Source: an uncultured Bdellovibrio sp. (GTDB taxonomy: Bacteria; Bdellovibrionota; Bdellovibrionia; Bdellovibrionales; Bdellovibrionaceae). Taken from it: 64,000 nucleotides of DNA. Position 1 is the stretch's first letter. Each line of letters opens with the position of its first letter. Both the position numbers and the translations under genes were made by a program. Where the stretch lies: the NCBI GenBank assembly GCA_963932905.1, contig CAWVRN010000013.1, forward strand, positions 46,472 through 110,471. Direction: 5' to 3'. The notes beneath the pieces are model-generated. The model was not told where the DNA came from and searched no databases. It was given only the letters and a program-made list of their open reading frames with translations. This document shows positions 4,757-24,050 of this stretch, in pieces.

Positions 4757-6226
4757 GTGAAAAATCTAAGTCTAACGCAAAGAATTTCCGTCTATTTATT
4801 TATAGTCGTCTGTGTATCGACGTTTATATTAAATTCTGCTTTCTTTATCGTCTTACGTACTCAAAGTGAAGAGCAGTTCAAGATCCAAGCTAATGAAATT
4901 TTAAATAACGTTAGCCGTTATTACCAAATTCCACTTTGGAATTTGGATTATAACGCGATCTCTGAGGTTACAAATACGTGGTTGCAAACTCGATCCGGTG
5001 TTGTGGCCATCAAAGTCACCGATGAAAATGGCGGGTTGGTTATTGAGAAAACGAAAGACAATCAACTGCTAGCGACTTTGTTAAAAAAACCTTACACGCT
5101 TTTAAGAAAAGAAAAAATCATTCATGATGAACGACAGCACATCGGTTATATTGAAATTTTGTTTTCTAATGCCGAACGAGTCGAACAAAACAATCTGACA
5201 TACATGAAGTCGATTTTATTTAGTTTGGTATTTGCATTCGTCATCAGTCTTGTTTCAAATCATTTCTTGACGTTGTTCGTACATCGTCCCTTGAAAAATT
5301 TAATTGAAGGAACCCAATCAGCGCATAATTCAAATTACACGATTCGTGTTCCTGAAAATGCTGCAGGCGAAATTGGTATTCTAGCAGCAGAATTCAACAA
5401 AACGATGAATCAAATCGAAGATCGGGATCGTCGTCTGCATAAACACAATGTCGCACTAGAAGAAGTTATTCGTGAACGTAACGTTGAGCTCGACAAGCAA
5501 CGCGCGACGATGTTTAACTCGTCTCGATTAGCTGCGCTAGGTGAATTTTCTGCAGGAATGTCACATGAAATCAACAATCCTCTTTCAGTAATCATTGGTA
5601 AATCGTCTATCCTGCGAGGCTTCGTTTCCAAAGGAAAGATCGGACCGGAATTTGAAATTCATTTCATCAAGATTCACGAAATGTGTGATCGCATTTCAAA
5701 AATCATAAAAAATCTTCGGTCTTATGCTCGCGATGGTTCAAATGATCCATTTGATTTTTTCGAAATTGATCGATTCTTCACGGACATCGGCGAACTGACT
5801 CGGATCAAACTAGACAAACGCGGCGTTGCTTTTAAATTTGTAAATAATTCGAAGGCGACCCATCTTTACGGTAAAGAAATCCCACTTTCCCAAGTCATTA
5901 TCAATTTAATAAACAACTCTGCTGACGCTGTGGAAAACCTGGAAGATAAAAAATGGGTTGAACTTAAGGTCGATGAAGATCCGCAAAATATCACGATTTC
6001 GGTCACTGATTCGGGAACAGGAATTCCAGAAGAAATTCAAAAGAGAATGCTAGTTCCTTTCTTCACTACAAAACCTATAGGTAAAGGCACTGGCCTAGGT
6101 CTAAGCATTTCGGCCACTATCATTGAAGAACATGGCGGCAAACTTATTTACAATAAAGACTATCCAAATACTCAATTTATTGTCCACCTACCAAACAAAC
6201 ACCATCCAAATCGCAAACTGAGCTAA
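4757..6226 (+). CDS. Membrane sensor histidine kinase (HAMP)
   Basis: Two TM segments, HAMP (GEIGILA..FN.M), HEINNPL, NLINNS, DSGTGI, FFTTK, GTGLGL. Confidence 0.92.
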   Translation: MKNLSLTQRISVYLFIVVCVSTFILNSAFFIVLRTQSEEQFKIQANEILNNVSRYYQIPLWNLDYNAISEVTNTWLQTRSGVVAIKVTDENGGLVIEKTKDNQLLATLLKKPYTLLRKEKIIHDERQHIGYIEILFSNAERVEQNNLTYMKSILFSLVFAFVISLVSNHFLTLFVHRPLKNLIEGTQSAHNSNYTIRVPENAAGEIGILAAEFNKTMNQIEDRDRRLHKHNVALEEVIRERNVELDKQRATMFNSSRLAALGEFSAGMSHEINNPLSVIIGKSSILRGFVSKGKIGPEFEIHFIKIHEMCDRISKIIKNLRSYARDGSNDPFDFFEIDRFFTDIGELTRIKLDKRGVAFKFVNNSKATHLYGKEIPLSQVIINLINNSADAVENLEDKKWVELKVDEDPQNITISVTDSGTGIPEEIQKRMLVPFFTTKPIGKGTGLGLSISATIIEEHGGKLIYNKDYPNTQFIVHLPNKHHPNRKLS

Positions 6227-8100
6227 ATCTGTAGACAAGTTTTTGGTTGCGTTAAAAAAGCGACTTTGTTTAGAAATGGTTGTGTAGCTAACTCAAATAA
6301 TTCGCGTACATTCTTGTCCTTAAAGATAGTCGAATGCTTAAGCGATAGCGTATTTATGAAATCATGGCATTCACCAGGTAAAACTTGACCCAAGCATTGC
6401 ATTAATTCGCGATGATATAAAAAATAGAACATATTAAAATAGGCTTCCAGTTTAATCGTCATACTTGGAACAAACGGATTATCAAAGTAGGAAAATTGAT
6501 TTTTTGATTTACCAGCTATCACCAAAAATATTTGTTCTTTTACACTTTCAATAAGTTTAGCCGGCTCATCCGGCAAATAATCCAATGATTTCCAAACGAA
6601 TTTGTAAAAATCGGCTGCCGAGATTGAAAACTGTTTTTGAACATGTTTTCTAATTTCGGTAAAAAATCCAGACAATTCCATTGCCCTAGTTAAGTGATCC
6701 ATAAAATACATCTCTGCCCAGTCTTGTTGAGAATAAGAAGCCGTCGAGGTGACGATGGCATATTGGCTTTGATGGACTAAATTAGTTAGTAAATGAGTTT
6801 CACCTTTATTATAAACTTGCGCTCTTAAATCTCCACCGACATGGAACCGGATTTGGCTTGTTTTTATTTTATATTGTTCGATATAGCTTGGCTCGCTGGC
6901 TGGAGTACCAGGCAGCAAAGACCACGCATATCTCTCCGTTGTCCAATCATCAACTCTATCCAACAGACATAATTCATCATAAAACGACTTTAAATTGCTT
7001 TCTGGCAAACCCAAAACAATTTCAAACTTCAATCTAAGATTGTACTTATTTTTTATTTGTAATGCTTTAGTTAGCAAAACATCCAAAGGAATATTTTTTC
7101 TTTTTATAGCAGACAAAATTCGATCGTTTGTTCCGTTTATTGCCAGATGATACGAGTCTCTCTCAGTAAGGCCCGCCTCAATCAGCAACGTATCTATTTC
7201 TTCATTTACATCCCAATTATTTTTTGACTTACCAAATAGGTAAATTTGTTTCAAATTTCCTTTTTTTGAAATCTCTACCAACTGCTTAATTATGTTTAAA
7301 TCACGCTCTTTAAAGATTCCAAAATTTGCATCTGTAATTCTAACTTCGTTGATGCCCATCGCATCTATATAATCCAGTTCGTTTTTAATAATATGATCGG
7401 GTTTAGTAAGAACCTTGGTATTTGTTCCCCCACCCCATTCACAATAAGTACAACGATAAGGACAACCTCGAGTTGTTTCCCAATTGGTGGCCAAATAACT
7501 AGATTTTTTATAAATTTTCTGAAGGTCGATATCAAAATCTTTAGCCTCGTTAAATATGTTTTCCGGCCAATTGAACACAGTTTTTTTTTCCACTAAAGAT
7601 TTTTTAATTTTTCTATCTTTGGAATCGAGATAAAGAGAGTAGGGAATTTTTTCGGGCGAAATCTTGTCTTCTGCGATTTGATCTAACAAGGAAGTGAAAA
7701 ACTCTTCTCCCCGTCCGGGATACTGGCAAACAATGTCTACAAAACTATTTTCAATAAACCAGTTTTCATTTTCATGTACCGTTAAGTCAGGCCCACCGAA
7801 AGCAATCAATACGCCAGGGAGACGTTTTTTCACTTCTTTTGCCAAATCAAAATTTAGCTGCCGATTCCAAATCAAACAACTGAACCCAATTACGTCTGGC
7901 TGTATACTGACAATATGTTTTATTAGATCATGAAATCCAAAAAAGGAAATATCTTCCAATGGAGGCAACCAATCCCAACTATCAAAATTCGCCCCATTTT
8001 CACGATAATAGGACTTTAGCAAAAGATACAAAAAAGGCAGTTCAATCGATTCTGAAGGAATCGTGGGGTTAACAAGTAAAATCCTCTTTTTTGTTTTCAT
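6223..8100 (-). CDS. Cobalamin-dependent (B12-binding) radical SAM enzyme
   Basis: N-terminal PDVIGFSCLIWN...FGGP...GEE B12-binding fold; ETTRGCPYRCTYC; DANFG; IVLGLP. Confidence 0.88.
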   Translation of the reverse strand: MKTKKRILLVNPTIPSESIELPFLYLLLKSYYRENGANFDSWDWLPPLEDISFFGFHDLIKHIVSIQPDVIGFSCLIWNRQLNFDLAKEVKKRLPGVLIAFGGPDLTVHENENWFIENSFVDIVCQYPGRGEEFFTSLLDQIAEDKISPEKIPYSLYLDSKDRKIKKSLVEKKTVFNWPENIFNEAKDFDIDLQKIYKKSSYLATNWETTRGCPYRCTYCEWGGGTNTKVLTKPDHIIKNELDYIDAMGINEVRITDANFGIFKERDLNIIKQLVEISKKGNLKQIYLFGKSKNNWDVNEEIDTLLIEAGLTERDSYHLAINGTNDRILSAIKRKNIPLDVLLTKALQIKNKYNLRLKFEIVLGLPESNLKSFYDELCLLDRVDDWTTERYAWSLLPGTPASEPSYIEQYKIKTSQIRFHVGGDLRAQVYNKGETHLLTNLVHQSQYAIVTSTASYSQQDWAEMYFMDHLTRAMELSGFFTEIRKHVQKQFSISAADFYKFVWKSLDYLPDEPAKLIESVKEQIFLVIAGKSKNQFSYFDNPFVPSMTIKLEAYFNMFYFLYHRELMQCLGQVLPGECHDFINTLSLKHSTIFKDKNVRELFELATQPFLNKVAFLTQPKTCLQI

Positions 8101-8169
8101 TGAATCAGTTTCAAAGAAAAACTACAATTTGACATCGATAAAACCAAGTCGACCAGGTGCGGCGGGTAA

Positions 8170-9030
8170 CTAGAAAATTGAAAGGGTCGACAAGTCCTCG
8201 ATTTGCTTTTGATTGTAAAGATAAAAAATGTGACGAAGCAATGCTGGGTTAGAAAAAGCGGTACATGAACTTAACGTAAAGTAGGCAAATGAAATCGGAC
8301 AATTCATTTCACTTTCTAAATAGTCATCAATCGAAATCTCGGAGTTAAAAAAATGACGTTCTGAAAATAATTTTAGAGAAAACCGTTTATACATTCTAGG
8401 AACTTCTTGATAAAATATATCCCTCAGTTCTTTCAAATTATATTTCGAAAGTATATATTTCTTCTGATTTCGATTAAACAGGGGATCGTGTAGAAAATTG
8501 TAACTTTGATTTAAATGTTGGTTACTTTGAACGATACGACTAGATAAATCGTCTTTCATTTCACAAAATAAATCTAAAGAAAACTCTACAACTGATTCAC
8601 GAACTTTTTCAAGCAACAGCTGACTTACAGAAGTATTCAGCTGGTTACCCGTTAATTTACACGTTAAATAGGAGGCAACTAAAAATTCTAAATGCATTTC
8701 CATCATCGTCTCTTTTTCAAATCGGAGATCATTACCAATGATCTCCGACGATTTAGAAAGATAACCATGCAAATATCTAAATTCTGACACGGAAATATTT
8801 CCTTCATAAAGCTTGGCATATAAGCGATTGCTGTAATGATTTATGTGCATAGATATAATTTTTTCTAAATGCTCCTCGGAAATATTTTTAAAATTTATTC
8901 TATACCAATTTTTTATACAGGATCGAAGCTGGGAAACACCATCTACTTTAAAATATAATTTGTTATGGCTAAAACCGTCCGCATTAGTTGAGTCAAATAA
9001 CAGAAATGTTTTTTTTGAAAGTGAAATCAA
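8170..9030 (-). CDS. Hypothetical protein, unknown paralog family A
   Basis: Shares MxxLxxxxFL start, DPLFN...Y.L..L and C-terminal NP motif with 9027..10100. Confidence 0.7.
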   Translation of the reverse strand: MISLSKKTFLLFDSTNADGFSHNKLYFKVDGVSQLRSCIKNWYRINFKNISEEHLEKIISMHINHYSNRLYAKLYEGNISVSEFRYLHGYLSKSSEIIGNDLRFEKETMMEMHLEFLVASYLTCKLTGNQLNTSVSQLLLEKVRESVVEFSLDLFCEMKDDLSSRIVQSNQHLNQSYNFLHDPLFNRNQKKYILSKYNLKELRDIFYQEVPRMYKRFSLKLFSERHFFNSEISIDDYLESEMNCPISFAYFTLSSCTAFSNPALLRHIFYLYNQKQIEDLSTLSIF

Positions 9031-10100
9031 TTGATACTCGCTCGGTGCATACTAAGTGCCCAATCCACAATAAAAGGATTAATCTGCCGATCATATTGAA
9101 ATCGATTAAACAAGACTCGCGTAATTCCAGACTCTGCTTCGAATTTCAAAACGTCGCCAAATGAAAGATCTCTTTTGAACAGGCAAGATGAAATCCCTTT
9201 ATAAACCTCGCCACTCGACATATCGGTCAAAGTTAAAAGGCTGTCCCGAACTGATACTAAATCATTTAAATCGTAATTGTTCCAAACATGACTAACGTTA
9301 TCGGCATTAAAAAGCGGATCAGCCATCCACAAGGGAAGATCGCCATTTCGTACGCGGTCGACAATATCACTCCAATTAAATTGGTTTTCATCCTTGAAGG
9401 TTATAATTTTTCCGTCTGAGATTCCTTGAATTCTAAAATGATTTAAAGCTAAAACAGATCCAACTTCTCGAAGATAGTCCGTGATCAATTGCTTTTTAAC
9501 AATATGCAAAGCTCGTTCTTCAAATTTCAAATTCTCATCACCACGGTCATTTTTTAACAGATGAAGCAATTGAAATTCAAAACCGATTTTGCTTTTTGGT
9601 AAGCTTTTAACCGAAGTTAGCTTAGACAAAACGTGTCTTACCTTTCCGTCTGAATGTCCATAGTACCCTATGTTTTTCACCCGTTCTTTCTCTACCTCTA
9701 AAAACTGTGCTGAATGCTTAATGTATAATGTTGCTAGAACGCCTTGATCTTCTTCATTGAGGCCAAACAAAAAATAAAATAAACGTTTTAGAATCTTGAA
9801 CGAGTCGTCCCAACTTGCAACGATAACGAAAACCGTTGTCTGATTTTGGCTAGTTTCTAACTGATGACTTAAATCAAGAAAAGTATTTGAGGAACTACCC
9901 TGATCCATATCGAACTCACCGATTTGATTTAAACCAGAGTCAATATTCTTAATAATATCTAAGACCGTGTTCTCACCCAGATAGGGATCCAATTCGTCTC
10001 TAAAATCTAAAACTGAAAATCGATGTATACCAGGCGCCCTCGCTGAGCCTGTAATATTAGATTTTGGATAAAGAAACAGACCCTCTCGGAGAAAAATCAT
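9027..10100 (-). CDS. Hypothetical protein, unknown paralog family A
   Basis: 357-aa ORF overlapping the next gene by 4 nt; DPLFNADNVSHVWNNYDL, INPFI. Confidence 0.72.
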   Translation of the reverse strand: MIFLREGLFLYPKSNITGSARAPGIHRFSVLDFRDELDPYLGENTVLDIIKNIDSGLNQIGEFDMDQGSSSNTFLDLSHQLETSQNQTTVFVIVASWDDSFKILKRLFYFLFGLNEEDQGVLATLYIKHSAQFLEVEKERVKNIGYYGHSDGKVRHVLSKLTSVKSLPKSKIGFEFQLLHLLKNDRGDENLKFEERALHIVKKQLITDYLREVGSVLALNHFRIQGISDGKIITFKDENQFNWSDIVDRVRNGDLPLWMADPLFNADNVSHVWNNYDLNDLVSVRDSLLTLTDMSSGEVYKGISSCLFKRDLSFGDVLKFEAESGITRVLFNRFQYDRQINPFIVDWALSMHRASIN

Positions 10101-10201
10101 ACCTTAGGGTACTTTACGATTATGCAGATCGCATTTCCCAACGCAGTGTGTATTGTTTGATTTCCAAGCAACTCAAATCTAGCGTGTTATTTATATTGGC
10201 T

Positions 10202-11041: not shown

Positions 11042-11069
11042 GCCAAGAATCCAACTAAACTCTGCACGA

Positions 11070-11687
11070 TTAATCCAATATTCGAATTTTCTTATTTTGA
11101 TGAAAATGACGTGCTTTAGTCATGAGTACCGCGATTGTCATACGTGGTTGATCGCCAAAATACGGTCTCACAACGTGTGATAAAAACGCAGGAAAAATAG
11201 CCAATCTATTTTCTTTTGGCTTTACGTATACTATTCCATTTGGGTAGTCAGTCGCCGTCGAATTTTTATATACCGCCAATTCTCCTCCCAAATACCGATC
11301 ATCTTTGGGCTCATCTATATTTAAATAAAACGTGATGGCAAAATATCCCCCCTCGGCCTGGTCATGATGAGTGTGAGTAATATATTCATCTGCCATCGTC
11401 TCACCATAATGTAGGACTTGATGAACCTGAAAATGAATTATTTCAAATTGCGAGCTGTCTTCTCCTGCATTCTGACAATAGTTCGTGAATGCACTTAATA
11501 AAAAACGCCGAAACAAATCAACTTCGGTAGGTAACCGATCATGATCAAAATTAATCATGGGGAATTTTTTCTGTCTTTTAAACTCCTCGAACATGAAGTT
11601 CTTCAGCTTCGCAAATTCGATGTCTGGTAATACGTTATCTTCTATTTGAATGTGTGTGGGCCAGAGGGTGTGAAAAGCCATGCTCAA
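11070..11687 (-). CDS. 2OG-Fe(II) oxygenase
   Basis: LWPTHI start, HTHHD, FYLN, GGEL, IFPAFLSHVVRPY, RMTIA. Confidence 0.82.
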   Translation of the reverse strand: MSMAFHTLWPTHIQIEDNVLPDIEFAKLKNFMFEEFKRQKKFPMINFDHDRLPTEVDLFRRFLLSAFTNYCQNAGEDSSQFEIIHFQVHQVLHYGETMADEYITHTHHDQAEGGYFAITFYLNIDEPKDDRYLGGELAVYKNSTATDYPNGIVYVKPKENRLAIFPAFLSHVVRPYFGDQPRMTIAVLMTKARHFHQNKKIRILD

Positions 11688-11815: not shown

Positions 11816-12760
11816 ATGAAAAAACTTATAGTGAGCGTAAACCCATCCTATCTTTGCAACTTAAAATGCAAGTTCTGTTATTTGACGAAAGAGCAACTTA
11901 GCGACCCACATAAGTTAGATATAAAAACCCTTGAACACAAAATTAAAGATTTAGCTGATGTATTTGAAATTACCAAGTTTGACTTATATGGCGGGGAATT
12001 TGCCGTTTTACCGCTGTCCTATCAAAATGATGTAGTTTCAGTGTTACAGCACTATGCGCGTGACAAAGTAAACATAATTACGAATTTGACTAAACTCAGC
12101 GATATTTTTTTTGATGAAGCGTTGGATATAAGCGTGAGCTTTGACTTTTCTGCGAGAGAACAACATGAACTAGTTTTAAAAAATATTGGATTTCTAAATC
12201 GTCCTATTTCCATACTTATGCTAGCGTCACCGGATTTGATGAAACTCGATCATGAAATGATGATTCAAACATTTAATATTTTTAGAAACATTATCAGTGT
12301 AGAAATTAAGCCTTACTCGACGAACCAAGCGAATGCCTTAAGTACTAAATTTAGCTCTTTTGAAGAATTCGTAAAAAAATGGATTTCTGCAAAAACAAAA
12401 AAAAACTTCTCGTTTGAAAATGAAAATCGCATTCAAAAAAGTTTAAAAAGATCTTACTCTGCTTTTTCCGATGATCATATTTACATCACTCCTTCTGGAA
12501 AATACGCAGTATTGGAATTTGACAAAGCCGACAACGAATTCTTTCTTGAGCTAAATTCCATTGAAGACTATTTAAATTGGTGCCAGCAGGAACCAAATAA
12601 ACTGACTCCCATCTGTCAGTCTTGTGAATATTTGGGCAATTGTTTAACAGAGCATTATCGACAAGTAAAATCCTTGGAAAACAGCTGCAATGGTTTTAAA
12701 TTCTTACTGGATTGGTATCGAAATGAAAAAATGGAAAATAAATCAGCAGATTTATCATAA
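11816..12760 (+). CDS. Radical SAM protein with C-terminal auxiliary-cluster motif
   Basis: CNLKCKFC, YGGE, ITNL, YITPSG, CQSCEYLGNCLTEH...SCNG. Confidence 0.9.
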   Translation: MKKLIVSVNPSYLCNLKCKFCYLTKEQLSDPHKLDIKTLEHKIKDLADVFEITKFDLYGGEFAVLPLSYQNDVVSVLQHYARDKVNIITNLTKLSDIFFDEALDISVSFDFSAREQHELVLKNIGFLNRPISILMLASPDLMKLDHEMMIQTFNIFRNIISVEIKPYSTNQANALSTKFSSFEEFVKKWISAKTKKNFSFENENRIQKSLKRSYSAFSDDHIYITPSGKYAVLEFDKADNEFFLELNSIEDYLNWCQQEPNKLTPICQSCEYLGNCLTEHYRQVKSLENSCNGFKFLLDWYRNEKMENKSADLS

Positions 12761-13136
12761 ACTCACAGACAAACATTCGGACGACTTAAACACCTTAAGC
12801 ATACGTTATGATAGCAATATTGCCAAATCGACGGTTTCCTATTTTCGAGGAAAAACGACGGGTCTAGTTTATCCCGCTAAAAGCTATTTCGTGGGAATTT
12901 GTTACGCCAAATGGATACAGCAAGACTTTGGAGATAGTTTTAAAGACAACCTAGACGATGCGGAGCTTTTATTCAAAAATGACCCTTACTTTAAACGGTA
13001 TTCAGAAGCAAAAGATGTTTATGACCAGATTCTTAGTATCGTTGGGCTTAACTTCGATGAATCGGTAGGTATTATTCCCGTGGTGCGACAATATTACCTA
13101 AATGAAATTCAACTCAAAGGATTTGATAATCCATAA
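12723..13136 (+). CDS. Hypothetical protein coupled to radical SAM gene
   Basis: Overlaps the 3' end of 11816..12760; YPAKSY, NDPYF; ATG 12723 likely start. Confidence 0.7.
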   Translation: MKKWKINQQIYHKLTDKHSDDLNTLSIRYDSNIAKSTVSYFRGKTTGLVYPAKSYFVGICYAKWIQQDFGDSFKDNLDDAELLFKNDPYFKRYSEAKDVYDQILSIVGLNFDESVGIIPVVRQYYLNEIQLKGFDNP

Positions 13137-14374: not shown

Positions 14375-14385
14375 CACAAACTCTG

Positions 14386-15255: not shown

Positions 15256-16175
15256 AAAAGCTATTTTTTGTATGTTTTTCGGTTGTTATAATGATACTTC
15301 TTATCTGGACATTAAGTCCAAACCCTAGCAATTTGGTTATAACGCAGCAACAGGTAAAGGAACTTTCACCTAACCAACCACCTCAGGTTGACCATGTCAG
15401 GTTTCACAATATTATCTTAACTGAGAAAAATGAGTGCGGGCAAACCCGAGAAAGCACTATTAGGGTATTTGATTTAGTATTTTTTGCTCCTCTGGAATTG
15501 ACTAGGGACAAATTGAGAATCATCGTCACAGAAGAGGTATCGGGCAACCAGCAAGAGATTTTTTTTGATGGAAACTCATTTTTGTATAAAAAATTAAATG
15601 CCAATTCCGATGTCCAAGACTTTGGAGTTCCTGAAAAATGCATAAGCCGCGATCCGTGTCCATTTTTTGTCAAAGTAAAACCCGAATATTGGAAAAATTT
15701 GAAAAGGGAAGTTCGGTTTTCCGTGAATATATTTAACTCAAACAACCAATCCGAACCTGCACTGGTAAAAAAATATGACACAGAAGAGAATCAATTTTTA
15801 ACTTCTTTTGCCGCCCCTCGAAACGAAATCAGTGTTTTGTCTTCATTTGATCCAAAGACAAAGACAGTTTACGCTTATTTACCTAAAACCCCCGTCATTG
15901 ACCAATTGAATAAAAGTACTGAGCTGTATTTGGTCATACAGACAAAGAACAAAGTAGAGCAAAATTTTCTAGATAAATTTGAGTTCGATGTAAACCTTTT
16001 TGGACTAGAAAAGCGCATACGTGGAGACAATTTTGAATACAAGACTAAGATAAATTCATCAGACCCTGCTTACCTCAATACAAGCTTTTATATGATTAGA
16101 AAAAACTTGTCCGAGGCCCACAGCGTAATTTCTATAAACAAATCTGATCCATTTTTCAATTGTTCACAACAGTAG
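15252..16175 (+). CDS. Membrane-anchored/secreted protein, paralog family B
   Basis: ATGA overlap with the upstream gene; N-terminal TM; KNECG, central Cys pair, terminal FFNC. Confidence 0.75.
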   Translation: MKKLFFVCFSVVIMILLIWTLSPNPSNLVITQQQVKELSPNQPPQVDHVRFHNIILTEKNECGQTRESTIRVFDLVFFAPLELTRDKLRIIVTEEVSGNQQEIFFDGNSFLYKKLNANSDVQDFGVPEKCISRDPCPFFVKVKPEYWKNLKREVRFSVNIFNSNNQSEPALVKKYDTEENQFLTSFAAPRNEISVLSSFDPKTKTVYAYLPKTPVIDQLNKSTELYLVIQTKNKVEQNFLDKFEFDVNLFGLEKRIRGDNFEYKTKINSSDPAYLNTSFYMIRKNLSEAHSVISINKSDPFFNCSQQ

Positions 16176-17196
16176 ATCGATCGATGTATGCAAAAGTTGC
16201 TTTAAACGGACAGTCCGCGGTGCTTGCGCGTTTTGTAAAGCTATGCTTTACAAAACAGCCCAAAGTGCATCGATTAAAATACTTACACTCTAGGCAATTG
16301 TATTTTTCCATAAAATTCATTTCCACAGCACTGTTGTCATTTGATTCAATTACGACGTCAAATAGCGGCGATACAGATTTGTTTTGTAAAATCAAATTAC
16401 CACATTTACATTCGGTTCCATCACCAAGTAAAAGTTTTGAACTACGACAAGACATCGTATTATAGGAATTTTCAATCCATTCCCTGATGGGATTTACTTT
16501 TGGAAAGTTATCTACAAGGTATTTAAAAAATACAACCAAATCATCATCATTTGGCATCATTAGCTGGTAATCATCTGCCGGAGAATAATAGTCAAAATAG
16601 ATATAAAAGTTTTTTTCGTACAAATATTCAAAATATCGATCGCCAGAGTTCAACATCAAACTTATAAGTGGCTTCGTAATAAGCATACTAATACAACTAA
16701 TTTCGTCGGAAAAAAATTCGACGTTGCTTTTAAAAAGTTCAAAATTGCTGTGACTAAAGCGCCCCCTCGGATCATAAGATGTGACCAGGTTATATGCGAT
16801 GTTATTCTTTTTAAGATCGGCGAAGAGAGCCCGTATTTGGCTCTGTCTATTATTTACTAAGTTTGAAACAAAATTGAAAACTACTTTTTTATTGTTCTTC
16901 CGAGTGAATCTATCGACTTCGTCGCAGAGGTAAAAATAGTCACTTTGCAAATTTTCGTCAAATAGGTCATCGGCAAAAATCTCGCCACCCATTATATTTA
17001 TTGTAAATTCAAACCGCTCGTCTTTATCCAGCATTGCGATTAACTGTGGTACTTTATTTCTAACTTCGGCTACCCCTTTTAACGCAGAATGATCTTGCCA
17101 ACAAAACTTACAGGCCAAGTTACACTTTTCAAATAGGTGCAAGGTGTACTCTTGATTGGGGCTTCGTTTGTTTTTCAAAACAAAATCGCTTATCAT
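16156..17196 (-). CDS. Radical SAM/SPASM-like protein
   Basis: CNLACKFC, MGGE, CLECKYFNRCTLGC (CxxCx5Cx3C), CP. Confidence 0.9.
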   Translation of the reverse strand: MISDFVLKNKRSPNQEYTLHLFEKCNLACKFCWQDHSALKGVAEVRNKVPQLIAMLDKDERFEFTINIMGGEIFADDLFDENLQSDYFYLCDEVDRFTRKNNKKVVFNFVSNLVNNRQSQIRALFADLKKNNIAYNLVTSYDPRGRFSHSNFELFKSNVEFFSDEISCISMLITKPLISLMLNSGDRYFEYLYEKNFYIYFDYYSPADDYQLMMPNDDDLVVFFKYLVDNFPKVNPIREWIENSYNTMSCRSSKLLLGDGTECKCGNLILQNKSVSPLFDVVIESNDNSAVEMNFMEKYNCLECKYFNRCTLGCFVKHSFTKRASTADCPFKATFAYIDRSTVVNN

Positions 17197-18239
17197 AGTC
17201 GAACCTCAGGTTGTCTCTTTTTTACAAGAACATTTCCGGCTTCTTTTTTATTTATTTCGATTACTTTTTTTGCTATCTCTTTCATTCCCGAACAGTGGCG
17301 TTCTATCGAGTCGTGTTGCTTCAGGTCGTGGATTGTTTTTTTACATCCGTTGCAAATATTAAACATCGGACATGTGTAACATTCAATTTTAAGTGCATTC
17401 AGTTCCGTCTGATTTAGAAGAGGTCGATGGACATTGACATCTGACATTTCCTGCTCAAAAGAAATGGGATAAAGTCGGTCATCCGCAAATGCCCCACAAC
17501 TATAGTAGTCACCGGATGGCTGCAAACATCGAATATTAGAATCGCAATTGCGATTCTGAGGGCACGTTTGATGACGTCCTGAAAATCTTTGCATCATCTG
17601 TTTAGTGTTGTATTCCCAGGGCCATAGTTCCATTTCATATATTTGCACATATATCTTATAGATTTTGGACAAAATATAGGGCTTTATTTGATCCCCGCTG
17701 GCCATCGCATAGTTCAGCTTACATTCGACACCCATCTGCTTAGCTAGTTCGACATTTTTAATTGCCGTGATATCGTTCTCATCGGTGATCACGGAAATGA
17801 AATCGGGTCGATAACCTACCTCATTTAAAAATAAGTCACTGACTCCCCAAAACATGGGTTCAGTATAAACTAAATCTTTTGTTATTCTGCGAGTGTCACC
17901 GAAATTAAAAGAGGTTGTAACTGAAACACGATGATTTTTAAATAACGGAGCCCACCTAGACGGACTATTTTTAAAAGCCCACAGATTTGAGGTAAAACTT
18001 ATTGAAGTCGACATTTTTTCCTGATCTAGAAATTCGATTATTTTCCAATAATAACCAGGATCTACCATCAGTGGATCTCCGCCATTAACAATTATGCTTC
18101 CCGTTTCTGGAAAACGTTTTAAAAAAGAAAATATCGTTTCTAAATCTAAGATTTTAGATTTTTCATCTGTAATATTTGTACTTGAGCAGAAAGTACATTT
18201 AAAATTGCATCGCTCAGTTGGTTTTATTATTAATTCCAT
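17193..18239 (-). CDS. Radical SAM/SPASM protein
   Basis: IKPTERCNFKCTFC, NGGDPL, TSNL, PSGDYYSCG, CYTCPMFNICNGC. Confidence 0.92.
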   Translation of the reverse strand: MELIIKPTERCNFKCTFCSSTNITDEKSKILDLETIFSFLKRFPETGSIIVNGGDPLMVDPGYYWKIIEFLDQEKMSTSISFTSNLWAFKNSPSRWAPLFKNHRVSVTTSFNFGDTRRITKDLVYTEPMFWGVSDLFLNEVGYRPDFISVITDENDITAIKNVELAKQMGVECKLNYAMASGDQIKPYILSKIYKIYVQIYEMELWPWEYNTKQMMQRFSGRHQTCPQNRNCDSNIRCLQPSGDYYSCGAFADDRLYPISFEQEMSDVNVHRPLLNQTELNALKIECYTCPMFNICNGCKKTIHDLKQHDSIERHCSGMKEIAKKVIEINKKEAGNVLVKKRQPEVRL

Positions 18240-19333
18240 CAGTAGTTAAAGTTTCCGTATTTGTAAAAGTTGTCATTTACCGTTTTAAATCCTGCCCTAG
18301 GAGCCAGACAATCTTTATAGTCTAGTTTTTCCATCAAATAATGCATTCCCCGCCCCACACAGTTTGAGGCGTATTCGCACCCAGCACATTCTGTGGTTTT
18401 TTCAATGTATTTCAATGAATCAACCATCATGCGATTCTCGAACTCTACAATTGTATTATAGTTCCATACGGTGTCAGCTCCCAAACCGGCATCGTCTTCA
18501 TACACAATTAAAGGCTCTCCCAAAAATACGGTAGAATATAAATTTCCATTTTTATAGACGTAATCTTTATCGTAGCCCTCATACCTTTTCCCGTAATTAA
18601 AGTTCACCTCTTGGCTCTTTTCTTCAATTACCGCTTTTTCAAACAGCAGATTAAGATACTTGATTAGGTGGAGAACCTTTTTTTTATTCTCAGGTATCGT
18701 CAGAGGCAATCTACCTTCCGATATGACCAAATCAAGATGACCTTCTGGCCAAATTTGGTTAAAATACTTCGAAAAATCATGAAATTGATAAAGTGGATCA
18801 TGCTCCTTCTGATATTCATGTAAATTTACTATGTTGTACACGTGACCAAACTCACAGTTTGGAATAATACTTTCGAAGAGTTTAATTTTTTCTTTGATAC
18901 CATTTAAATACTTTTCGTTCCTTAAGTGTTTGGGCTCTAACGGAACAGTCCATTTAACACGACGGCCAGATAAAATAGGCTTTAATTTATTCGCCCAGTA
19001 TCTAACGACTTCATGATCTGCTAAAAAGGTAGAATTTAATACCAGGTTACGAAAATAATCCATCATAGGAATAATGTCTTTATTAAGAATTTCATCGGTA
19101 TTGCGAGCACTCATAAAATCCGTGGCGCCAACAGCCAAATTTATCAAGACATGATTGTTATCCTTAAGATCCTGAAACAAATCCATAAGTCGTCTGAAAT
19201 CATTTCCAATAAATCCGTTAGCGTCGTCTTTGTTGATACGACATCCTGTACACTTCCACTTACAACCGCTCAAAACCTCTAAATTTATATCAACTAAAAA
19301 GTGGGATTGGTAATTAGCCAAGATTTCCTCCAA
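18239..19333 (-). CDS. Divergent radical SAM protein
   Basis: GCKWKCTGC (CxxxCxxC); GGE region reads VGATDF; C-terminal CAGCEYASNC...C. Confidence 0.78.
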   Translation of the reverse strand: MEEILANYQSHFLVDINLEVLSGCKWKCTGCRINKDDANGFIGNDFRRLMDLFQDLKDNNHVLINLAVGATDFMSARNTDEILNKDIIPMMDYFRNLVLNSTFLADHEVVRYWANKLKPILSGRRVKWTVPLEPKHLRNEKYLNGIKEKIKLFESIIPNCEFGHVYNIVNLHEYQKEHDPLYQFHDFSKYFNQIWPEGHLDLVISEGRLPLTIPENKKKVLHLIKYLNLLFEKAVIEEKSQEVNFNYGKRYEGYDKDYVYKNGNLYSTVFLGEPLIVYEDDAGLGADTVWNYNTIVEFENRMMVDSLKYIEKTTECAGCEYASNCVGRGMHYLMEKLDYKDCLAPRAGFKTVNDNFYKYGNFNY

Positions 19334-20384
19334 ACGCTCGATTAACTCGCGCTGAATGATAAAATTTTAATTCTTCCGGATTTTTAAAAAAAGTCGTCGT
19401 CGCAAAATCTATAAAATAGTTGTTCAAAGTTAGACCAAATTTAGATTGCCCTATGAAATTTCTAATTCGGCTATTTAAATCTAAATCTAAAATAGCGTCT
19501 ATAGAAATATCGAAATTTAACTTTAACCATTCAAAGGCAACGTCCAAAAGTGGATTCGGCAAGTACTGTCTTACCTTCGACAACTCCCGCTGAATATCTT
19601 TGATATCATAGTGAGACTCTAAAAAATTATTTCGATTGACCGCCACCTGTCCATCCATCATAAACTTTAAAAAATTTTCGCTGTAACGTTCTGCATGTTT
19701 AGTCATCTCGTCTATGAAAGAGTAACTGGACAGCAGTTCAGCTCGCAAATCTAAAAGTAATAAAACTTGTGTTTCTTGAAGATCTTTCGTCAGTTGCTTC
19801 TTTGTTCCTTCCGGGAGTGGCATTTTTGCAGAGATATAATCAACATAGGCATTCTCAAAAGGCAGAATATGCCAATAGTCAAACCGATCTCCGAAAATAC
19901 CTCTGTTGGATTTTTTTATTGTTTTAGGCCGCGATGCCTGAACAAATTTATCTATTTTATGAGCCAAATCCTTAGTCAGATTCCCGGCTGCCGTTCGGCT
20001 CCTTAGCAGTCTATATTCATATCTATCTAGTACCATTTGAAATAAAAAGTTGGCCCGAGACTGATCGATATCCGGCATCATGCTAAACACCCAGTCACTG
20101 TATACAGCTATAAAATTCTCTACATCACAGTAGATGATCGTTTGACCTTCAGATTTAATCAAATTACTCCAAAATACACTTAATCCATCAGAGTTTGAAC
20201 TAACAAAATCAATATAAGAATCTTGGCTGTAAACGACGTTACCAAAGATTAGTCCTGTTAAATTCTTTTCCTCTTCTGAAAAAACACTCCAGCGATTCCC
20301 CGCCTCACCAAAAAACACCAAGTTTTGACTGTTTCGTATATCAAAATCAGGAGCCAGAAAAACGTTACCGACTAAGTTAATCAT
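19314..20384 (-). CDS. Hypothetical protein, unknown paralog family A
   Basis: MINLVGNVFL start, IIYCD, HYDIKDI, LNNYF. Confidence 0.72.
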   Translation of the reverse strand: MINLVGNVFLAPDFDIRNSQNLVFFGEAGNRWSVFSEEEKNLTGLIFGNVVYSQDSYIDFVSSNSDGLSVFWSNLIKSEGQTIIYCDVENFIAVYSDWVFSMMPDIDQSRANFLFQMVLDRYEYRLLRSRTAAGNLTKDLAHKIDKFVQASRPKTIKKSNRGIFGDRFDYWHILPFENAYVDYISAKMPLPEGTKKQLTKDLQETQVLLLLDLRAELLSSYSFIDEMTKHAERYSENFLKFMMDGQVAVNRNNFLESHYDIKDIQRELSKVRQYLPNPLLDVAFEWLKLNFDISIDAILDLDLNSRIRNFIGQSKFGLTLNNYFIDFATTTFFKNPEELKFYHSARVNRAFGGNLG

Positions 20385-21459
20385 TCAGCGCCAACTCTGT
20401 TAATTCAAAGCCGATATTTTGCAACTCGGTAGCGGCGTTTTCCATTAAAAACAATAAATATGGATTCAAGTACTCGCGAACTCTTAACGATTTTAGAATT
20501 TTAGCTGAAGCTACTTTTTCTTTACTTTTGGTTAGAATTTCTAAAGTAAAAAATGGAGATGATCGATCAAGAAACACATTTTGAAAAATTGGCGCATATT
20601 CATTGTACTGCAATTCCAAGGCTTGCAGATGGATTTTACTGTTATCAAATTCAAATAGCAGCTTATAAATTTCAGGGGCGAGCCTTGCAAGTTCATTACG
20701 TCGATTTTTCGACCAAGAAATCTGATCGATTCCAATCATTTTCTCAATTCTATAATAAGAATCTATCAAAGGCAGCACAACGTCCTCTTCAAATTCTGTC
20801 AGACTTCCTACATTCAAAGTATTGAGTGTATTCAAAAGCATACCTTGCGAAGGTTTAAAATCACCATTTGTATAGTAATTTACAAAAAACAAATCTAAAT
20901 TAACTTGATCATACAGTTGCGTCTTGATCTTCTGATTTATTCTCCAAGCAAATGTATTTTCCCATATGAGTTTAATAAAACCAGCCGAAACGACCTGATG
21001 AATTTGATCGTGCAATTGTCCGCTAAAACTATGGACAGATATTGACGATTGATTGCCGGCGTTTCCATCAATAAACTTTATCTTTTTTAAAAAAATGTTG
21101 ATCAAAAAATCAAATGCTTCAAATCCCATGTTAGGCAAAATTGTCTTAAACAATTTTGCTTTTAAATAAACCATATTTTCAATATCGCTGAAAATAAAAA
21201 GCAAATTGGGTTCTGAAGATTCAATCATCCATTCAACAAACGCGCTGTCGTCATTTTTGAATTTTTCTTCGACAAACGACCACAGCTGAGAACAACCAAA
21301 TCGCTGCTTCGAATTGTCTAATTTTAGACCGTTTAAGCCTCTGGAAGGGTCAAATCCACGTGCATAGGATTCGTATTCTTTAAAAATTCCTAAATGATTC
21401 GCGTTTACATCGAATTCAACAAAATTTTTTAAAAACACCTTACCAAACAATTGATACAT
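20377..21459 (-). CDS. Hypothetical protein, unknown paralog family A
   Basis: MYQLFGKVFL start, FIFSD, LNPYLL. Confidence 0.72.
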   Translation of the reverse strand: MYQLFGKVFLKNFVEFDVNANHLGIFKEYESYARGFDPSRGLNGLKLDNSKQRFGCSQLWSFVEEKFKNDDSAFVEWMIESSEPNLLFIFSDIENMVYLKAKLFKTILPNMGFEAFDFLINIFLKKIKFIDGNAGNQSSISVHSFSGQLHDQIHQVVSAGFIKLIWENTFAWRINQKIKTQLYDQVNLDLFFVNYYTNGDFKPSQGMLLNTLNTLNVGSLTEFEEDVVLPLIDSYYRIEKMIGIDQISWSKNRRNELARLAPEIYKLLFEFDNSKIHLQALELQYNEYAPIFQNVFLDRSSPFFTLEILTKSKEKVASAKILKSLRVREYLNPYLLFLMENAATELQNIGFELTELALND

Positions 21460-21462
21460 AAA

Positions 21463-22239
21463 TTAGCTGACCGTAATGCGATCAAGCTCTTTACCTACCA
21501 GGTCTATTTGCTGTTCAGTGAACGCCTTTTTCAAAACTGCGCCTACGACAGCGTAGAGTTCGGGGCTTGATTGCATGGTTTCAGCAAACAAATTTTTTCC
21601 GTTATAAAAAAACTCTTCAAATTGAGGTTTAAAATAAAAAGCGGTCGTAGTTGAAAAAGTTCCGAAATAATTTATATAAAACATAGGCATTTTCAATAAA
21701 TTCACGAAAGTAAAACCGGTGAATTCCATATCGTCAACAACGGAAAAATGAGCTTCCGGAGGTGAACCTAAATCTCGAAATTCTTTGGAGCAGGTGTATA
21801 TAAAGGTAGGAATACTATCAAGAAGCACGATAAGCCGAAGCATATTATTCATTCGATCTGCGTCTTCCAAATAGTCCCGAACTCGCTCTCTAGAGATTAA
21901 TGAGTAGGTGTCTAAAATCTGTTGTTCCGCTTCAGACAACTCGATCCCTTTAATTTCAGCCAGAATTCGAACAATCGAAAATTTTATATTCACCAAATCT
22001 ATTGTCGATTTAAACGTGACATAGCTATCAATTAAAGAGAAAAAATCATCTTCAATACTATTTGATTTTTCAAAATAAACATTCGCCACATTAATGTTGC
22101 TTAAATAAATCAACAGAGCGCGGTCTTTGATTTGACATGCTTTATAATCACCAATGACTTTTAAATCAGGATTGGCGATAACTAATTTCAAGTCATCCAT
22201 ACTAAGCGGAAACTTAGTTCGTAATTCCATTGTACTCAT
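21463..22239 (-). CDS. Hypothetical protein translationally coupled to the CHxx-repeat protein
   Basis: 258-aa ORF; ATGA overlap with the stop of 22236..22883. Confidence 0.75.
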   Translation of the reverse strand: MSTMELRTKFPLSMDDLKLVIANPDLKVIGDYKACQIKDRALLIYLSNINVANVYFEKSNSIEDDFFSLIDSYVTFKSTIDLVNIKFSIVRILAEIKGIELSEAEQQILDTYSLISRERVRDYLEDADRMNNMLRLIVLLDSIPTFIYTCSKEFRDLGSPPEAHFSVVDDMEFTGFTFVNLLKMPMFYINYFGTFSTTTAFYFKPQFEEFFYNGKNLFAETMQSSPELYAVVGAVLKKAFTEQQIDLVGKELDRITVS

Positions 22240-22883
22240 CGGCGCCCCCTAGCGCCATGACAGCTGCCATGGCACGAAGAATGGCACCACGTCTCTACAA
22301 AAACTATCGGATTAGCGGCTCTATCATTTGCTAAATGCAAAGCTAGAGCATCGATGAAAGCAATAATCGGTTGAGATTCCACCCACGAACCAACCCCAGG
22401 AAAAGCAGGCCCGATCCCGGCATAATTGACGACATCGAAATTCAAATGAATTTGCCCGGCCATAGGCCCATATTGATTAACCATAGTTCCAAAGTTATTA
22501 TAATTTTTTTGAATTGTATAATTGCGATAACGACTAAGCGTTGAGAATACAGTTCTAATAAAACCCGCCACACTGGCTACCGAAACTCGCTGAGCCACAT
22601 CAACGCCAGCAGCCTGAATTTCCGCGCTCGTCACCGCAGTGCGAACGGTTTGACCTGCGCCTAACTGACTAGATCCATCTCCCGTCGCCACACCATTTCT
22701 AGTTGTGCTGCTATAACTACCAGAAATGGGCCTATTGTTTACAAAAGGATTGTTATTAGGATCACCGCCGGGACTTCCGCTGTGAGTTTTGCTTGCTGCA
22801 TTTATAGCCGCCACAGTTATATTAAGTTGATCGCGAATTTGATCTCTAAATACCGCATCAATTCTGGTTCCCCGAGCCCCCAC
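22236..22883 (-). CDS. Fibre-like protein with C-terminal (CHxx)3 motif; putative radical SAM substrate
   Basis: AGGAGA RBS + GTG; G/A/S/T/N/V-rich body; all three Cys are in the terminal WCHSSCHGSCHGARGRR. Confidence 0.8.
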   Translation of the reverse strand: MGARGTRIDAVFRDQIRDQLNITVAAINAASKTHSGSPGGDPNNNPFVNNRPISGSYSSTTRNGVATGDGSSQLGAGQTVRTAVTSAEIQAAGVDVAQRVSVASVAGFIRTVFSTLSRYRNYTIQKNYNNFGTMVNQYGPMAGQIHLNFDVVNYAGIGPAFPGVGSWVESQPIIAFIDALALHLANDRAANPIVFVETWCHSSCHGSCHGARGRR

Positions 22884-22892
22884 GCCAGTCTC

Positions 22893-24050
22893 CTATTCTT
22901 TGCCTACAAATTTATTCAGCATTTTTCTATATAGGTTGATATCATTTTTTTCTTTTAATTCTTGCATTAACGTCTTGGGCGAGGCACACAGATCCCCCTG
23001 CCACGCTAATTGATGACAATCGCCATTACATACATCAAATACGTCACAGGAATAACATATCGGATTTCTTTGAACCTCACACAATATATTTTTCGAACGT
23101 CCCGGCGACGACAATAACTCAGGAATAGGCATAGATAGATGAGCATATGGCTGAGTTGCGGCTGAATTCGGACACCCACCAATGCTGCCGTCCGCGTTCA
23201 AAGTGAAAATTTTTTGTTCACAACCCCGACATCTACACCCCGTATGGGCTCGATTAACCAAACTAGTTAAAATTGAATTAAAAAACAAATTTGTAAATTT
23301 TGTATAAGACTCTAGCTTTACCGTTGCCCGCCAAAGTTTCAAAAACCAATCGTCCAATTCTTTATTTGTTGGAATGACACCCTGATTAACAAGCGCATTA
23401 CCATTTGGGGTAATTCTTTCTAGATGCAAATACTGAACACCCAAGTCAGCAAACCATTTTAAAAAATCTTCGACATCCATTTGGATAACATCTTTGGACA
23501 AACTGATCATAACAGTGACTTCGTGGCCATCCTGAAGAAGCGTATTAACATTTTTTCGCCAAAGAGTCTCTTGATGTTCTGACTGAAAACGAATGCCTCT
23601 ATCCCAAGAGGTCGCAATACCTTGGGAAAATGCCGTTTTCATAAACTGTCGTTTTTCATCATCAAGGTTATAAACCAAATTCGTGGTAGCCGACCACCAA
23701 ACGTTTGGCCACAAATTGCGACAGCTATTCCATACTTTATACATAGAAGAAATTGGTGCCAAAAATGGCTCTCCTCCATGAAAGGCCACATGACCATTTT
23801 TCAAGTGTGGAACAACTTGGTGAAATCTATGAAACCAATCAACCACAGCATCTGGGTCAAAAAAAATCTTTTTTCCGTTTTTGCCACTAGTGAAACAATG
23901 CGAACAGTTTAGCTGGCAGGTTTCCGTTGTCTTTAGATAGACCATCAAATCAGAGACCCTTAAAAACGAAGACAGGTTAAGGCCACGCTTAATTTGCGGA
24001 TCAACAGAACGGTCATTAAAACTTGAGGACGTATCTTTTAATTCTATCAT
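22893..24050 (-). CDS. Radical SAM/SPASM maturase
   Basis: KTTETCQLNCSHC, FHGGEP, TTNL, CRCRGC...NADGSIGGCP, CYSCDVFDVCNGDC...C. Confidence 0.93.
   Translation of the reverse strand: MIELKDTSSSFNDRSVDPQIKRGLNLSSFLRVSDLMVYLKTTETCQLNCSHCFTSGKNGKKIFFDPDAVVDWFHRFHQVVPHLKNGHVAFHGGEPFLAPISSMYKVWNSCRNLWPNVWWSATTNLVYNLDDEKRQFMKTAFSQGIATSWDRGIRFQSEHQETLWRKNVNTLLQDGHEVTVMISLSKDVIQMDVEDFLKWFADLGVQYLHLERITPNGNALVNQGVIPTNKELDDWFLKLWRATVKLESYTKFTNLFFNSILTSLVNRAHTGCRCRGCEQKIFTLNADGSIGGCPNSAATQPYAHLSMPIPELLSSPGRSKNILCEVQRNPICYSCDVFDVCNGDCHQLAWQGDLCASPKTLMQELKEKNDINLYRKMLNKFVGKE

Follow-up and report, generated by a model that had tools for sequence, protein, structure and literature searches.

We analysed a 64,000-nucleotide stretch (the window) of contig CAWVRN010000013.1 from an uncultured Bdellovibrio sp., in which a cluster of radical S-adenosylmethionine (radical SAM) enzymes and 2-oxoglutarate (2OG)/Fe(II) oxygenases accompanies a protein that ends in three Cys-His units. 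The cluster occupies positions 6223-24050, where 19 densely arranged open reading frames (ORFs, named here by their first position) are found. The protein is the product of ORF 22236 and its C-terminal end is referred to as the CH tail (Table 1). A preliminary description of this DNA had counted six radical SAM enzymes and three oxygenases with only one evident substrate, and had proposed either hypermodification of one short motif or further substrates encoded elsewhere in the genome.

Genes and motifs of the locus

The cluster is part of an island of about 6.2-32.4 kb that is flanked by a histidine kinase gene on one side and by genes for BamE and SecA on the other. By strand, three arrays can be told apart, in keeping with the several transcription units that had been described: a minus-strand array running from 24050 to 16156, in which neighbouring ORFs overlap or are separated by at most 20 bp, a plus-strand array from 11816 to 16175, and a minus-strand set from 11687/10100 to 6223. 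Promoter and terminator scans returned counts that were not above those of shuffled sequences. The guanine-plus-cytosine (GC) content is 35.4% in 6223-22235 and 42.4% in 22236-27881, against 40.7% for the genome, and the step at about 22.2 kb is sharp and falls inside the minus-strand operon. A prophage was considered as an explanation for the island and rejected, since the window contains no head, terminase or tail-tube genes and housekeeping genes lie on both flanks. No second cassette was found by tblastn in the genome assembly (58 contigs, 4.55 Mb, 98.6% complete).

The CX3CX2C motif of radical SAM enzymes occurs once in each of six ORFs, beginning at C213 (6223), C14 (11816), C25 (16156), C11 (17193), C24 (18239) and C45 (22893), and in none of the other 22 of the 28 ORFs checked (6223-32382); these are exactly the six that had been named. 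Scores with the Pfam Radical_SAM model (PF04055) were above the gathering cut-off of 29.5 bits for 6223 (33.2 bits) and 17193 (33.3 bits) and below it for 11816 (27.7), 22893 (22.8) and 16156 (17.3), while 18239 was without any Pfam match. A PF04055 search of the whole 4.55-Mb genome gave 23 matches, four of which fall within these 18 kb, well over background. Four of the six ORFs matched the PHROG 1802 "radical SAM" profile (22893, E 1e-61; 17193, E 4e-53; 16156, E 2e-39; 11816, E 2e-35), and by these matches they are paralogues within one phage family. By inspection, the seven-Cys C-terminal pattern of SPASM domains is complete in 22893, in 17193 (CX2CX5CX2C) and in 16156 (CX2CX5CX3C), although the SPASM/Twitch model TIGR04085 gave 22893 a score of 19.5 against a cut-off of 27. 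A reduced C-terminal Cys set is present in 11816 (Cys 256, 267, 270, 276 and 291; Twitch-like) and in 18239 (four Cys). In the latter, C24, C28 and C31 together with C316, C319, C325 and C342 are invariant among 11 homologues, and a weak hhalign match to the profile of the other radical SAM family was obtained (probability 44.7%, E 2e-4); 18239 is probably a radical-SAM-like enzyme that has diverged and keeps one Cys set for an auxiliary cluster.

The nearest structure in the PDB to the PHROG 1802 profile over its full length was the anaerobic sulfatase-maturating enzyme (anSME) 4k37 (E 8e-15, residues 14-342 against 6-357), followed by CteB, MoaA, ChlB and YydG. The best NCBIfam matches of the radical SAM ORFs were the peptide maturases DarE, DynA, CbpB and PapB, all of them far under their cut-offs.

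ORF 6223 has the layout of class B enzymes, with a B12-binding domain (PF02310, residues 57-127, a marginal 31.7 bits against a cut-off of 32.1) N-terminal to the radical SAM core (PF04055, residues 208-343). Its best NCBIfam match, the KedN5 family (NF033712), scored 115 bits against a cut-off of 700, so it fits no named subfamily; by its domain order it is a probable class B radical SAM methyltransferase. The three ORFs that had been assigned as oxygenases proved to keep the H-x-D/H...H...R residues of the 2OG family, although only 11070 passes its Pfam cut-off. The metal triad and the Arg are conserved in 13-15 of 15 homologues of 11070, in 14-15 of 15 of 13202 (H118, H120, H179, R190) and in 7-8 of 8 of 13823 (H87, D89, H150, R162). 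The preliminary description had pointed to the placement of O2-sensitive beside O2-requiring chemistry. Aerobes run many radical SAM enzymes, and the polytheonamide and pyrroloquinoline quinone clusters combine both chemistries, so that their proximity here is no paradox.

The CH-tail protein belongs to a large family. A profile of 27 members, searched against 1.84 billion representative proteins, matched 847 representative clusters at E <=1e-3, 567 at <=1e-10 and 107 at <=1e-30, and the window protein itself matched at E 9e-36 with an exact tail. Among the best 150 representatives, 137 end exactly in C-H-x-x-C-H-x-x-C-H-x-x-R-x-R-R, with Ser as the fourth residue of units 1, 2 and 3 in 126, 107 and 123 of these 137, respectively, and the median number of Cys outside the tail is 0. 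C200, H201, C204, H205, H209, R212, R214 and R215 are invariant in the family alignment. N-domain identity to phage sequences falls to 15-24% while the tail stays constant. A word-indexed search found four related clusters only, all with the same tail, and the match of the window protein to PHROG 35144 was weak (E 6.5e-4) and confined to the tail. An AlphaFold2 model of the 215-residue protein consists of one alpha/beta domain (predicted local distance difference test, pLDDT, 77.8; predicted template modelling score 0.76). Given a single modelled domain despite the N-terminal divergence, the product is predicted to be a folded protein whose C terminus is a fixed tag, rather than a small peptide. 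A six-frame scan of all 58 contigs found no other CH..CH..CH stretch, nor any other two-unit CH..CH.. stretch in an open frame, so that ORF 22236 encodes the sole CHxx-repeat protein of this genome; the single evident substrate was thus upheld, and the suggested further CHxx substrates elsewhere were not found.

Thirteen of the best 150 representatives miss the exact tail. Some lack the third Cys or have a C-H unit replaced (e.g., ...CHSSCHSS-HSSRNRR), and four are without the terminal R-x-R-R, possibly through truncated gene calls. Such variants, which include positions 9932-10585 of locus L037 and the representatives P0102, P0053 and P0138, could reveal dispensable positions.

Table 1. Predicted products of the cluster and of the adjoining fibre region; homologue counts refer to the 40 phage-type loci described in the text
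Feature	Position	Strand	Basis
CH-tail protein, 215 aa, presumed substrate	22236..22883	-	Alpha/beta N-domain, then tail W-CHSS-CHGS-CHGA-RGRR
Radical SAM/SPASM enzyme, most constant partner	22893..24050	-	PHROG 1802; directly upstream of CH-tail gene; homologues in 40/40 loci
Radical SAM/SPASM enzyme	17193..18239	-	Pfam 33.3 bits; PHROG 1802; homologues in 34/40 loci
Radical SAM/SPASM enzyme	16156..17196	-	PHROG 1802; homologues in 37/40 loci
Radical SAM enzyme, partial Twitch-like Cys set	11816..12760	+	PHROG 1802; homologues in 27/40 loci
Divergent radical-SAM-like enzyme (probable)	18239..19333	-	PHROG 31457; invariant Cys; homologues in 6/40 loci
B12-binding (class B) radical SAM enzyme	6223..8100	-	Radical_SAM and B12-binding domains; homologues in 10/40 loci
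2OG/Fe(II) oxygenase, accessory	11070..11687	-	Pfam 2OG-FeII_Oxy_3, 36.9 vs 27; PHROG 81; homologues in 14/40 loci
2OG/Fe(II) oxygenase-like, HxH variant, accessory	13202..13810	+	Pfam 2OG-FeII_Oxy_5, 26.5 vs 27; homologues in 15/40 loci
2OG/Fe(II) oxygenase-like, accessory	13823..14374	+	Pfam 20.3 vs 27; homologues in 6/40 loci, including L001
PHROG 20767 protein, 258 aa, constant downstream neighbour	21463..22239	-	PHROG 20767, E 8e-26; homologues in 37/40 loci
Small PHROG 20737 protein	12690..13136	+	PHROG 20737, E 2e-39; after 11816-type enzyme; alignment A7; homologues in 25/40 loci
Helical protein, ~360 aa, family A5	20377..21459	-	Homologues in L001, L037
Second helical protein, ~356 aa, provisionally in A5 set	19314..20384	-	Homologues in L001, L037, L003
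Helical protein, 357 aa, provisionally in A5 set	9027..10100	-	Homologue in L037, homologue fragment in L001
Protein common to phage contig L037, 325 aa	10064..11041	+	phmmer E 2e-47 to L037; homologues in 2/40 loci
Protein, 286 aa	8170..9030	-	Homologue in L001 only (1/40)
Two paralogues with hydrophobic N-termini	14326..15255, 15222..16175	+	Also paralogous to 29420-30262; 0/40 loci
Three pilin-like tail-fibre proteins	24139-25143, 25730-26770, 26760-27881	-	Peptidase_S74, E 4e-10 to 5e-13; weak N_methyl; tail-fibre PHROGs
Conserved protein, 203 aa	25109-25720	-	Homologues at E 1e-60 to 1e-74 in 8/11 relatives' loci; single-copy in genome

Distribution in phages, in a virion and among bacterial relatives

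Forty loci were collected via the tail motif or a cassette protein (L001-L040), comprising 37 uncultured phage contigs, phages RSF1 and Atu_ph07, and one metagenome-assembled genome (MAG) of the Bdellovibrionaceae. The 37 loci from the IMG/VR tail scan each encode a protein of 146-296 residues ending in CH.SCH.SCH.SRGRR or a near variant. Co-occurrence profiling had been suggested as a check: of the 17 genes that the span contains besides that of the CH-tail protein, 15 have homologues within 10 kb of a CH-tailed gene elsewhere. In 34 of the 40 loci, the CH-tail gene is preceded on its own strand, at a distance of 30 bp or less, by a radical SAM gene, and in four others by one at 924 bp; of the remaining two loci, one is cut by a contig end and one has the enzyme downstream. 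PHROG 20767 follows directly downstream of the CH-tail gene in most of the 40. In L037, which comes from a 193-kb viral contig, the gene order is nearly that of the window. With four radical SAM ORFs as paralogues of one family, a shared recurrence and no further CHxx protein in the genome, the enzymes are therefore not members of unrelated families with independent distributions. The variable parts are the oxygenases, which have homologues in 20 of the 40 phage-type loci as against 0 of 11 chromosomal loci of bacterial relatives, and the B12 enzyme (10 of 40 and 3 of 11, respectively); these are accessory.

The cassette also occurs in cultured phages. A tblastn search of them with a phage CH-tail protein gave no match; the PHROG 20767 protein matched 15 records, from jumbo phages of Ralstonia, Burkholderia, Agrobacterium, Sinorhizobium and Pseudomonas. 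In RSF1, a cupin gene, a radical SAM gene, ORF071, three hypothetical genes, a second radical SAM gene and more radical SAM and 2OG genes follow one another between baseplate genes, and ORF071 has a C-terminal CH tail. In Atu_ph07, the cassette comes after a giant "T4-like structural protein" and the C terminus of gp170 is a CH tail. Both tailed proteins are annotated as hypothetical. In general, the phage cassettes adjoin giant structural, tail-fibre or baseplate genes.

One member of the family is present in a virion. The proteome of Atu_ph07 (Table S5 of PMC6102473, rows Gp 57-707) lists Gp 170 as a hypothetical protein of 31,89 kDa with 8 unique peptides and 35.16% coverage, in bands 1-9 with a peak in band 1. 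The numbering agrees with that of the genome, since translated gp170 has a computed mass of 31.89 kDa, the same as in the table row, and the masses of gp176 and gp177 fit the annotated gene lengths. The neighbouring enzymes gp165, gp168 and gp171, as well as gp169, are absent from these rows (PMC6102473). Within these rows, the family member is therefore a virion component and the enzymes are not. Proteins of 76-139 kDa peak in band 1, which lies at the top of the gel, and those of 7-15 kDa in bands 12-13. Most other proteins of 28-36 kDa are most abundant in bands 7-8, and some others further down, in bands 9-13; in this size range only two other rows have their maximum in band 1, on 1-2 peptides each (PMC6102473). 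The migration of gp170 hints at a high-mass form that is stable to sodium dodecyl sulfate and heat, which fits covalent linkage and is no proof of it.

This result bears on an unlikely alternative in which the enzymes mainly modify fibre proteins, a small molecule or a sugar, and the CH-tail protein supplies them with electrons or carries a metal or an Fe-S cluster for them. Tails rich in Cys and His at the C terminus are typical of metallochaperones, and the enzymes are many for a single short motif. Fe-S assembly genes also occur in T4-like environmental genomes with abundant radical SAM genes (PMC5332604), and some phage radical SAM clusters occur with amidinotransferases (PMC2853527, PMC12801897). 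However, if the CH-tail protein were a helper, one would not expect to find it in the virion without the enzymes (rows of PMC6102473 cited above); the tight pairing of the two genes, with that of the enzyme immediately before that of the tailed protein and often overlapping it, is the usual layout of maturase and precursor, and the window cluster is without sugar or nucleotide enzymes.

The CH-tail gene was also found in 16 of 401 sampled genomes of the same phylum, the window genome included (by family, 2 of 53, 3 of 20 and 10 of 100; 0 of 26 in one large genus). Chromosomal loci of 11 relatives among these 16 were compared over 20 kb each. PHROG 1802-type enzymes and a PHROG 20767 homologue are present in all 11, a PHROG 20737 homologue in 10, a homologue of 25109 in eight and S74 fibre proteins in six. 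Just upstream of the cassette in the window, on the same strand, are three mutually paralogous fibre proteins whose N-termini are of prepilin type (e.g., R-G-F-T-L-I-E, then a hydrophobic helix) and whose C-terminal end is a Peptidase_S74 intramolecular chaperone domain. A prepilin-like G/A-x-S-x-x-E start was seen by eye in seven of eight fibre homologues of relatives. Both features are kept in the relatives' homologues. From their domains, these proteins look like pilin/tail-fibre chimeras, which would make them interesting with regard to how Bdellovibrio-like bacteria recognise prey. No gene is conserved better than ORF 25109 in the bacterial form of the island; its product had no Pfam, NCBIfam or PHROG match, and its Atlas look-alikes are viral clusters, one labelled as a Peptidase_G2 IMC autoproteolytic domain (score 0.95). 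Because phage cassettes sit in a tail-fibre or baseplate setting and the relatives' loci have S74 and 25109 neighbours, the cassette is tied to fibre genes in phages and bacteria alike.

These counts largely refute a chance clustering of unrelated systems, or a functionless and decaying prophage remnant, either of which we regard as very improbable. The several transcription units on both strands and the GC steps within the island are what such an origin would leave, but the same gene set recurs in 40 phage-type and 11 chromosomal loci. Moreover, every ORF of 6223-24050 is intact, with stops overlapping starts, and the window order is kept at 47-75% protein identity in the MAG (Bdellovibrionaceae bacterium UBA2351, L001), where genes of the 9027, 8170 and 13823 types sit directly before the enzyme-substrate pair.

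Two of the relatives' chromosomes have two tandem CH-tail genes with different N-domains and the same tail (L054, 9540-10728; L055, 9398-10622); for one of these genomes a third, partial match was listed.

Relation to known systems and proposed function

Several families of radical SAM enzymes that act on proteins or peptides were compared with the cassette. anSME (4k37; TIGR03942) has a radical SAM core and a SPASM domain without a fused recognition domain, as does PHROG 1802, and it oxidises a protein Cys; the cassette enzymes are likened to it by architecture only. Scores with TIGR03942 were 34-38 bits against a cut-off of 349, no sulfatase is encoded in the cluster, and the cassette differs in having three Cys units and several paralogous enzymes. 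The sulfatase motif is C-x-P/A-x-R, with a Cys-Arg spacing equal to that of the last tail unit, C-H-G-S/A-R. The ranthipeptide and sactipeptide maturases (PapB, NF047865; CteB, 5wgg; SkfB) and the CXXX-repeat maturases (TIGR04115) are SPASM enzymes that cross-link Cys residues of Cys-rich C-terminal motifs. As in the window, their precursor gene adjoins the enzyme gene, and the CH tail is formally a C-x-x-x repeat. Unlike them, the cassette enzymes have no RRE domain, the "leader" is a folded domain of 200 residues, and the product apparently remains a protein; scores were 34 against 340 bits for PapB and 18.1 against 350 bits for TIGR04115 (22893). In the polytheonamide proteusin pathway, a radical SAM epimerase, B12 radical SAM C-methyltransferases and an Fe/2OG hydroxylase modify a single ribosomal product whose leader is large and folded. 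This mix of enzyme classes is that of the cassette, which differs in lacking a nitrile-hydratase-like or Nif11 leader and any NCBIfam family match, and in having a modified part that would be short and invariant, as opposed to a core that is long and variable.

The nearest studied analogue is HXS, in which multiple radical SAM enzymes and a small partner mature a full-size HxS-repeat protein: HxsB and HxsC, with HxsD, mature HxsA, whose SHRSS unit, within the HxS repeats, changes by +8 Da (Li et al. 2026, PMC13128918). HXS is an antiphage system that is periplasmic and 99.7% confined to Pseudomonadota, and its matured HxsA is proposed to bind DNA (PMC13128918). An HXS-like DNA-entry system, whose matured basic HxS-type tail would bind DNA, and so stop the entry of phage DNA as a defence in bacteria or, in phages, serve in superinfection exclusion or DNA handling at ejection, is an alternative, if an improbable one. 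The CH tail can be read as three H-x-S units spaced by Cys and ending in R-G-R-R. HXS modification takes place at the last repeat and the repeats are rich in basic residues (PMC13128918), as is the end of the window tail, and here, too, radical SAM enzymes stand beside a small partner, as with the two enzymes that mature the DNA-binding HxS-repeat effector (PMC13128918). The island is patchy in distribution and below the genome in GC content, as defence islands are, and HxsC was the fourth-best NCBIfam match of 17193. However, the best score with HxsC (TIGR03977) was 33.8 bits against 267.9 and with HxsB (TIGR03978) 19.8 against 370, and neither HxsA (TIGR03979) nor HxsD (TIGR03976) gave a match at E <=0.01 for 22236-22883 or the small neighbours. 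PADLOC reported no defence system beyond generic radical SAM similarity, and neither a signal peptide nor the peptidoglycan-binding domain that HxsA has besides its HxS repeats was detected. The window repeats also differ in being C-H-x-S, exactly three in number and at the extreme C terminus, followed by R-G-R-R; the enzymes are of PHROG 1802, anSME-like with SPASM domains, in another gene order; and the cassette is set in phage structural modules beside fibre genes, with a family member in the virion.

Cassettes of radical SAM genes have been noted in phages for some time. The "host recognition clusters" of pelagimyophages differ by such cassettes (PMC7029224), Campylobacter phages have 11-12 radical SAM genes each (PMC2853527), a T4-like environmental genome has 12 (PMC5332604), FLC6 has Fe-S oxidoreductase, radical SAM and 2OG genes in common with RSF1 (PMC8066314), and a 2025 cyanophage paper labels such a gene "antibiotic synthesis" (PMC12801897). 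In the passages of these five accounts that were available, a CH-tailed protein, a substrate or a function is not named. In the literature outside subscription journals, which were not covered, we found no described function for the cassette. The window copy differs from the phage cassettes in its chromosomal location in a bacterium.

We hypothesize, with a probability slightly above one half (about 0.55), that the region is one phage-derived maturation cassette for a fibre-associated CH-tail protein, carried in a bacterial chromosome. The cassette belongs to the phage host-recognition type of module and is best classed as akin to radical SAM maturation of repeat-tailed proteins. Its core would consist of the CH-tail protein (22236-22883), the adjoining enzyme (22893-24050), the radical SAM paralogues 17193, 16156 and 11816, probably 18239, and two constant non-enzymatic partners, PHROG 20767 (21463) and PHROG 20737 (12690). 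In the cytoplasm, the SPASM enzymes would abstract hydrogen from residues of the (C-H-x-S)x3-R-G-R-R tail, and its three Cys, the only ones in the protein, would then be converted or cross-linked. We infer these steps because the PHROG 1802 family is nearest to anSME and the best NCBIfam matches are peptide maturases. Tailoring by the 2OG oxygenases and the B12 radical SAM methylase would be optional. The matured protein would then join a fibre or adhesin apparatus, in phages the baseplate/tail-fibre region of the virion and here, probably, the adjacent pilin-like proteins with tail-fibre ends. Of the hypermodification of one motif that had been proposed, one co-distributed system around the CHxx-tailed protein is thus supported, while action of all nine enzymes on that motif is not.

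Several points weigh against this proposal. No modification has so far been observed in any family member, and nine enzymes are a lot for a motif of 16 residues. None of the 11 relatives' loci has an oxygenase, so that part of the enzymes may have other targets, and nearby fibre proteins and the small PHROG 20737 protein are plausible candidates. The loci were collected via the tail or a cassette protein, and so the counts show the companions of the CH tail and not how often the enzymes occur without it. The position of gp170 in the top band could reflect aggregation rather than covalent linkage. The modelled N-domain is without a clear structural relative: against the PDB, the best Foldseek match had E 0.68 and a sequence-profile search gave nothing under E 0.38; a wide search with VIA reached Z 4.2 at best, with baseplate/TssK-type rows (Z 3.5-4.0) at noise level, and matches in BFVD were to its own family only. 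No signal peptide was seen in the CH-tail protein, which leaves its route to extracytoplasmic pilin-like fibres unexplained. Finally, the GC shift at about 22.2 kb means that the cassette in this genome may be a mosaic of pieces with different origins.

Radical SAM cassettes have been noted for 15 years in the genomes of jumbo, T4-like and Campylobacter phages without a substrate or role. The window ties them to a near-invariant motif (at least 847 representative clusters), to a protein detected in a virion, and to fibre or adhesin genes in phages and Bdellovibrio-type bacteria, so that a vague annotation becomes testable, both as chemistry on (C-H-x-S)3-R-G-R-R and as a role in adsorption or prey recognition. 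More tentatively, phages and predatory bacteria may share a radical SAM pathway that turns the CH tail into a covalent cross-link or metal-binding knot, which would anchor or harden recognition fibres, the kit having been recruited here to type IV pilin-like proteins with phage tail-fibre domains at their ends. If so, it would be the first radical SAM post-translational modification of a virion or adhesin component and a common molecular basis for the gripping of targets by phages and bacterial predators. A tail that is cross-linked or a cofactor would represent a new class of virion protein modification and a second, phage-side relative of HXS chemistry.

Accompanying proteins and flanking genes

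The PHROG 20767 protein was modelled with a pLDDT of 85.9, and neither a sequence profile nor Foldseek or VIA matched its fold to a PDB entry. In VIA, anSME, ChlB and Elp3 appeared as weak rows (Z 3.2-3.7), which raised the possibility of a radical SAM relative without a cluster, which was ruled out by hhalign (probability 0.5%). A complex prediction of this protein with the CH-tail protein gave a score of 0.01 and a mark of 0.32. Homologues of the small PHROG 20737 protein adjoin the 11816-type gene in the loci where coordinates were compared.

The helical proteins of about 360 residues returned only low-score helical-repeat look-alikes in an Atlas search, and 20377 had no Pfam, NCBIfam or PHROG match. 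Both 20377 and 19314 match L037 ORF 12462-13532, and both 9027 and 20377 match L037 ORF 11349-12452, although a direct match between 9027 and 20377 is absent. That these proteins are degenerate radical SAM paralogues was considered and ruled out (hhalign probability 0.3%).

ORFs 14326 and 15222 are, judging by homology searches, bacterial additions without a phage counterpart. ORF 14326 is 43% identical to 29420-30262 of the minus strand; these proteins have hydrophobic N-termini and no family match or phage counterpart. Homologues of 29420 and 30259 adjoin the cassette in locus L059, too.

On the 5' side of the island, positions 1-6226 of the window encode a FabH-like ketosynthase, an acyl-AMP ligase, a short-chain dehydrogenase and an alpha/beta hydrolase, with an adjoining HAMP histidine kinase. 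These look like ordinary genes of lipid or secondary metabolism and lie outside the cassette.

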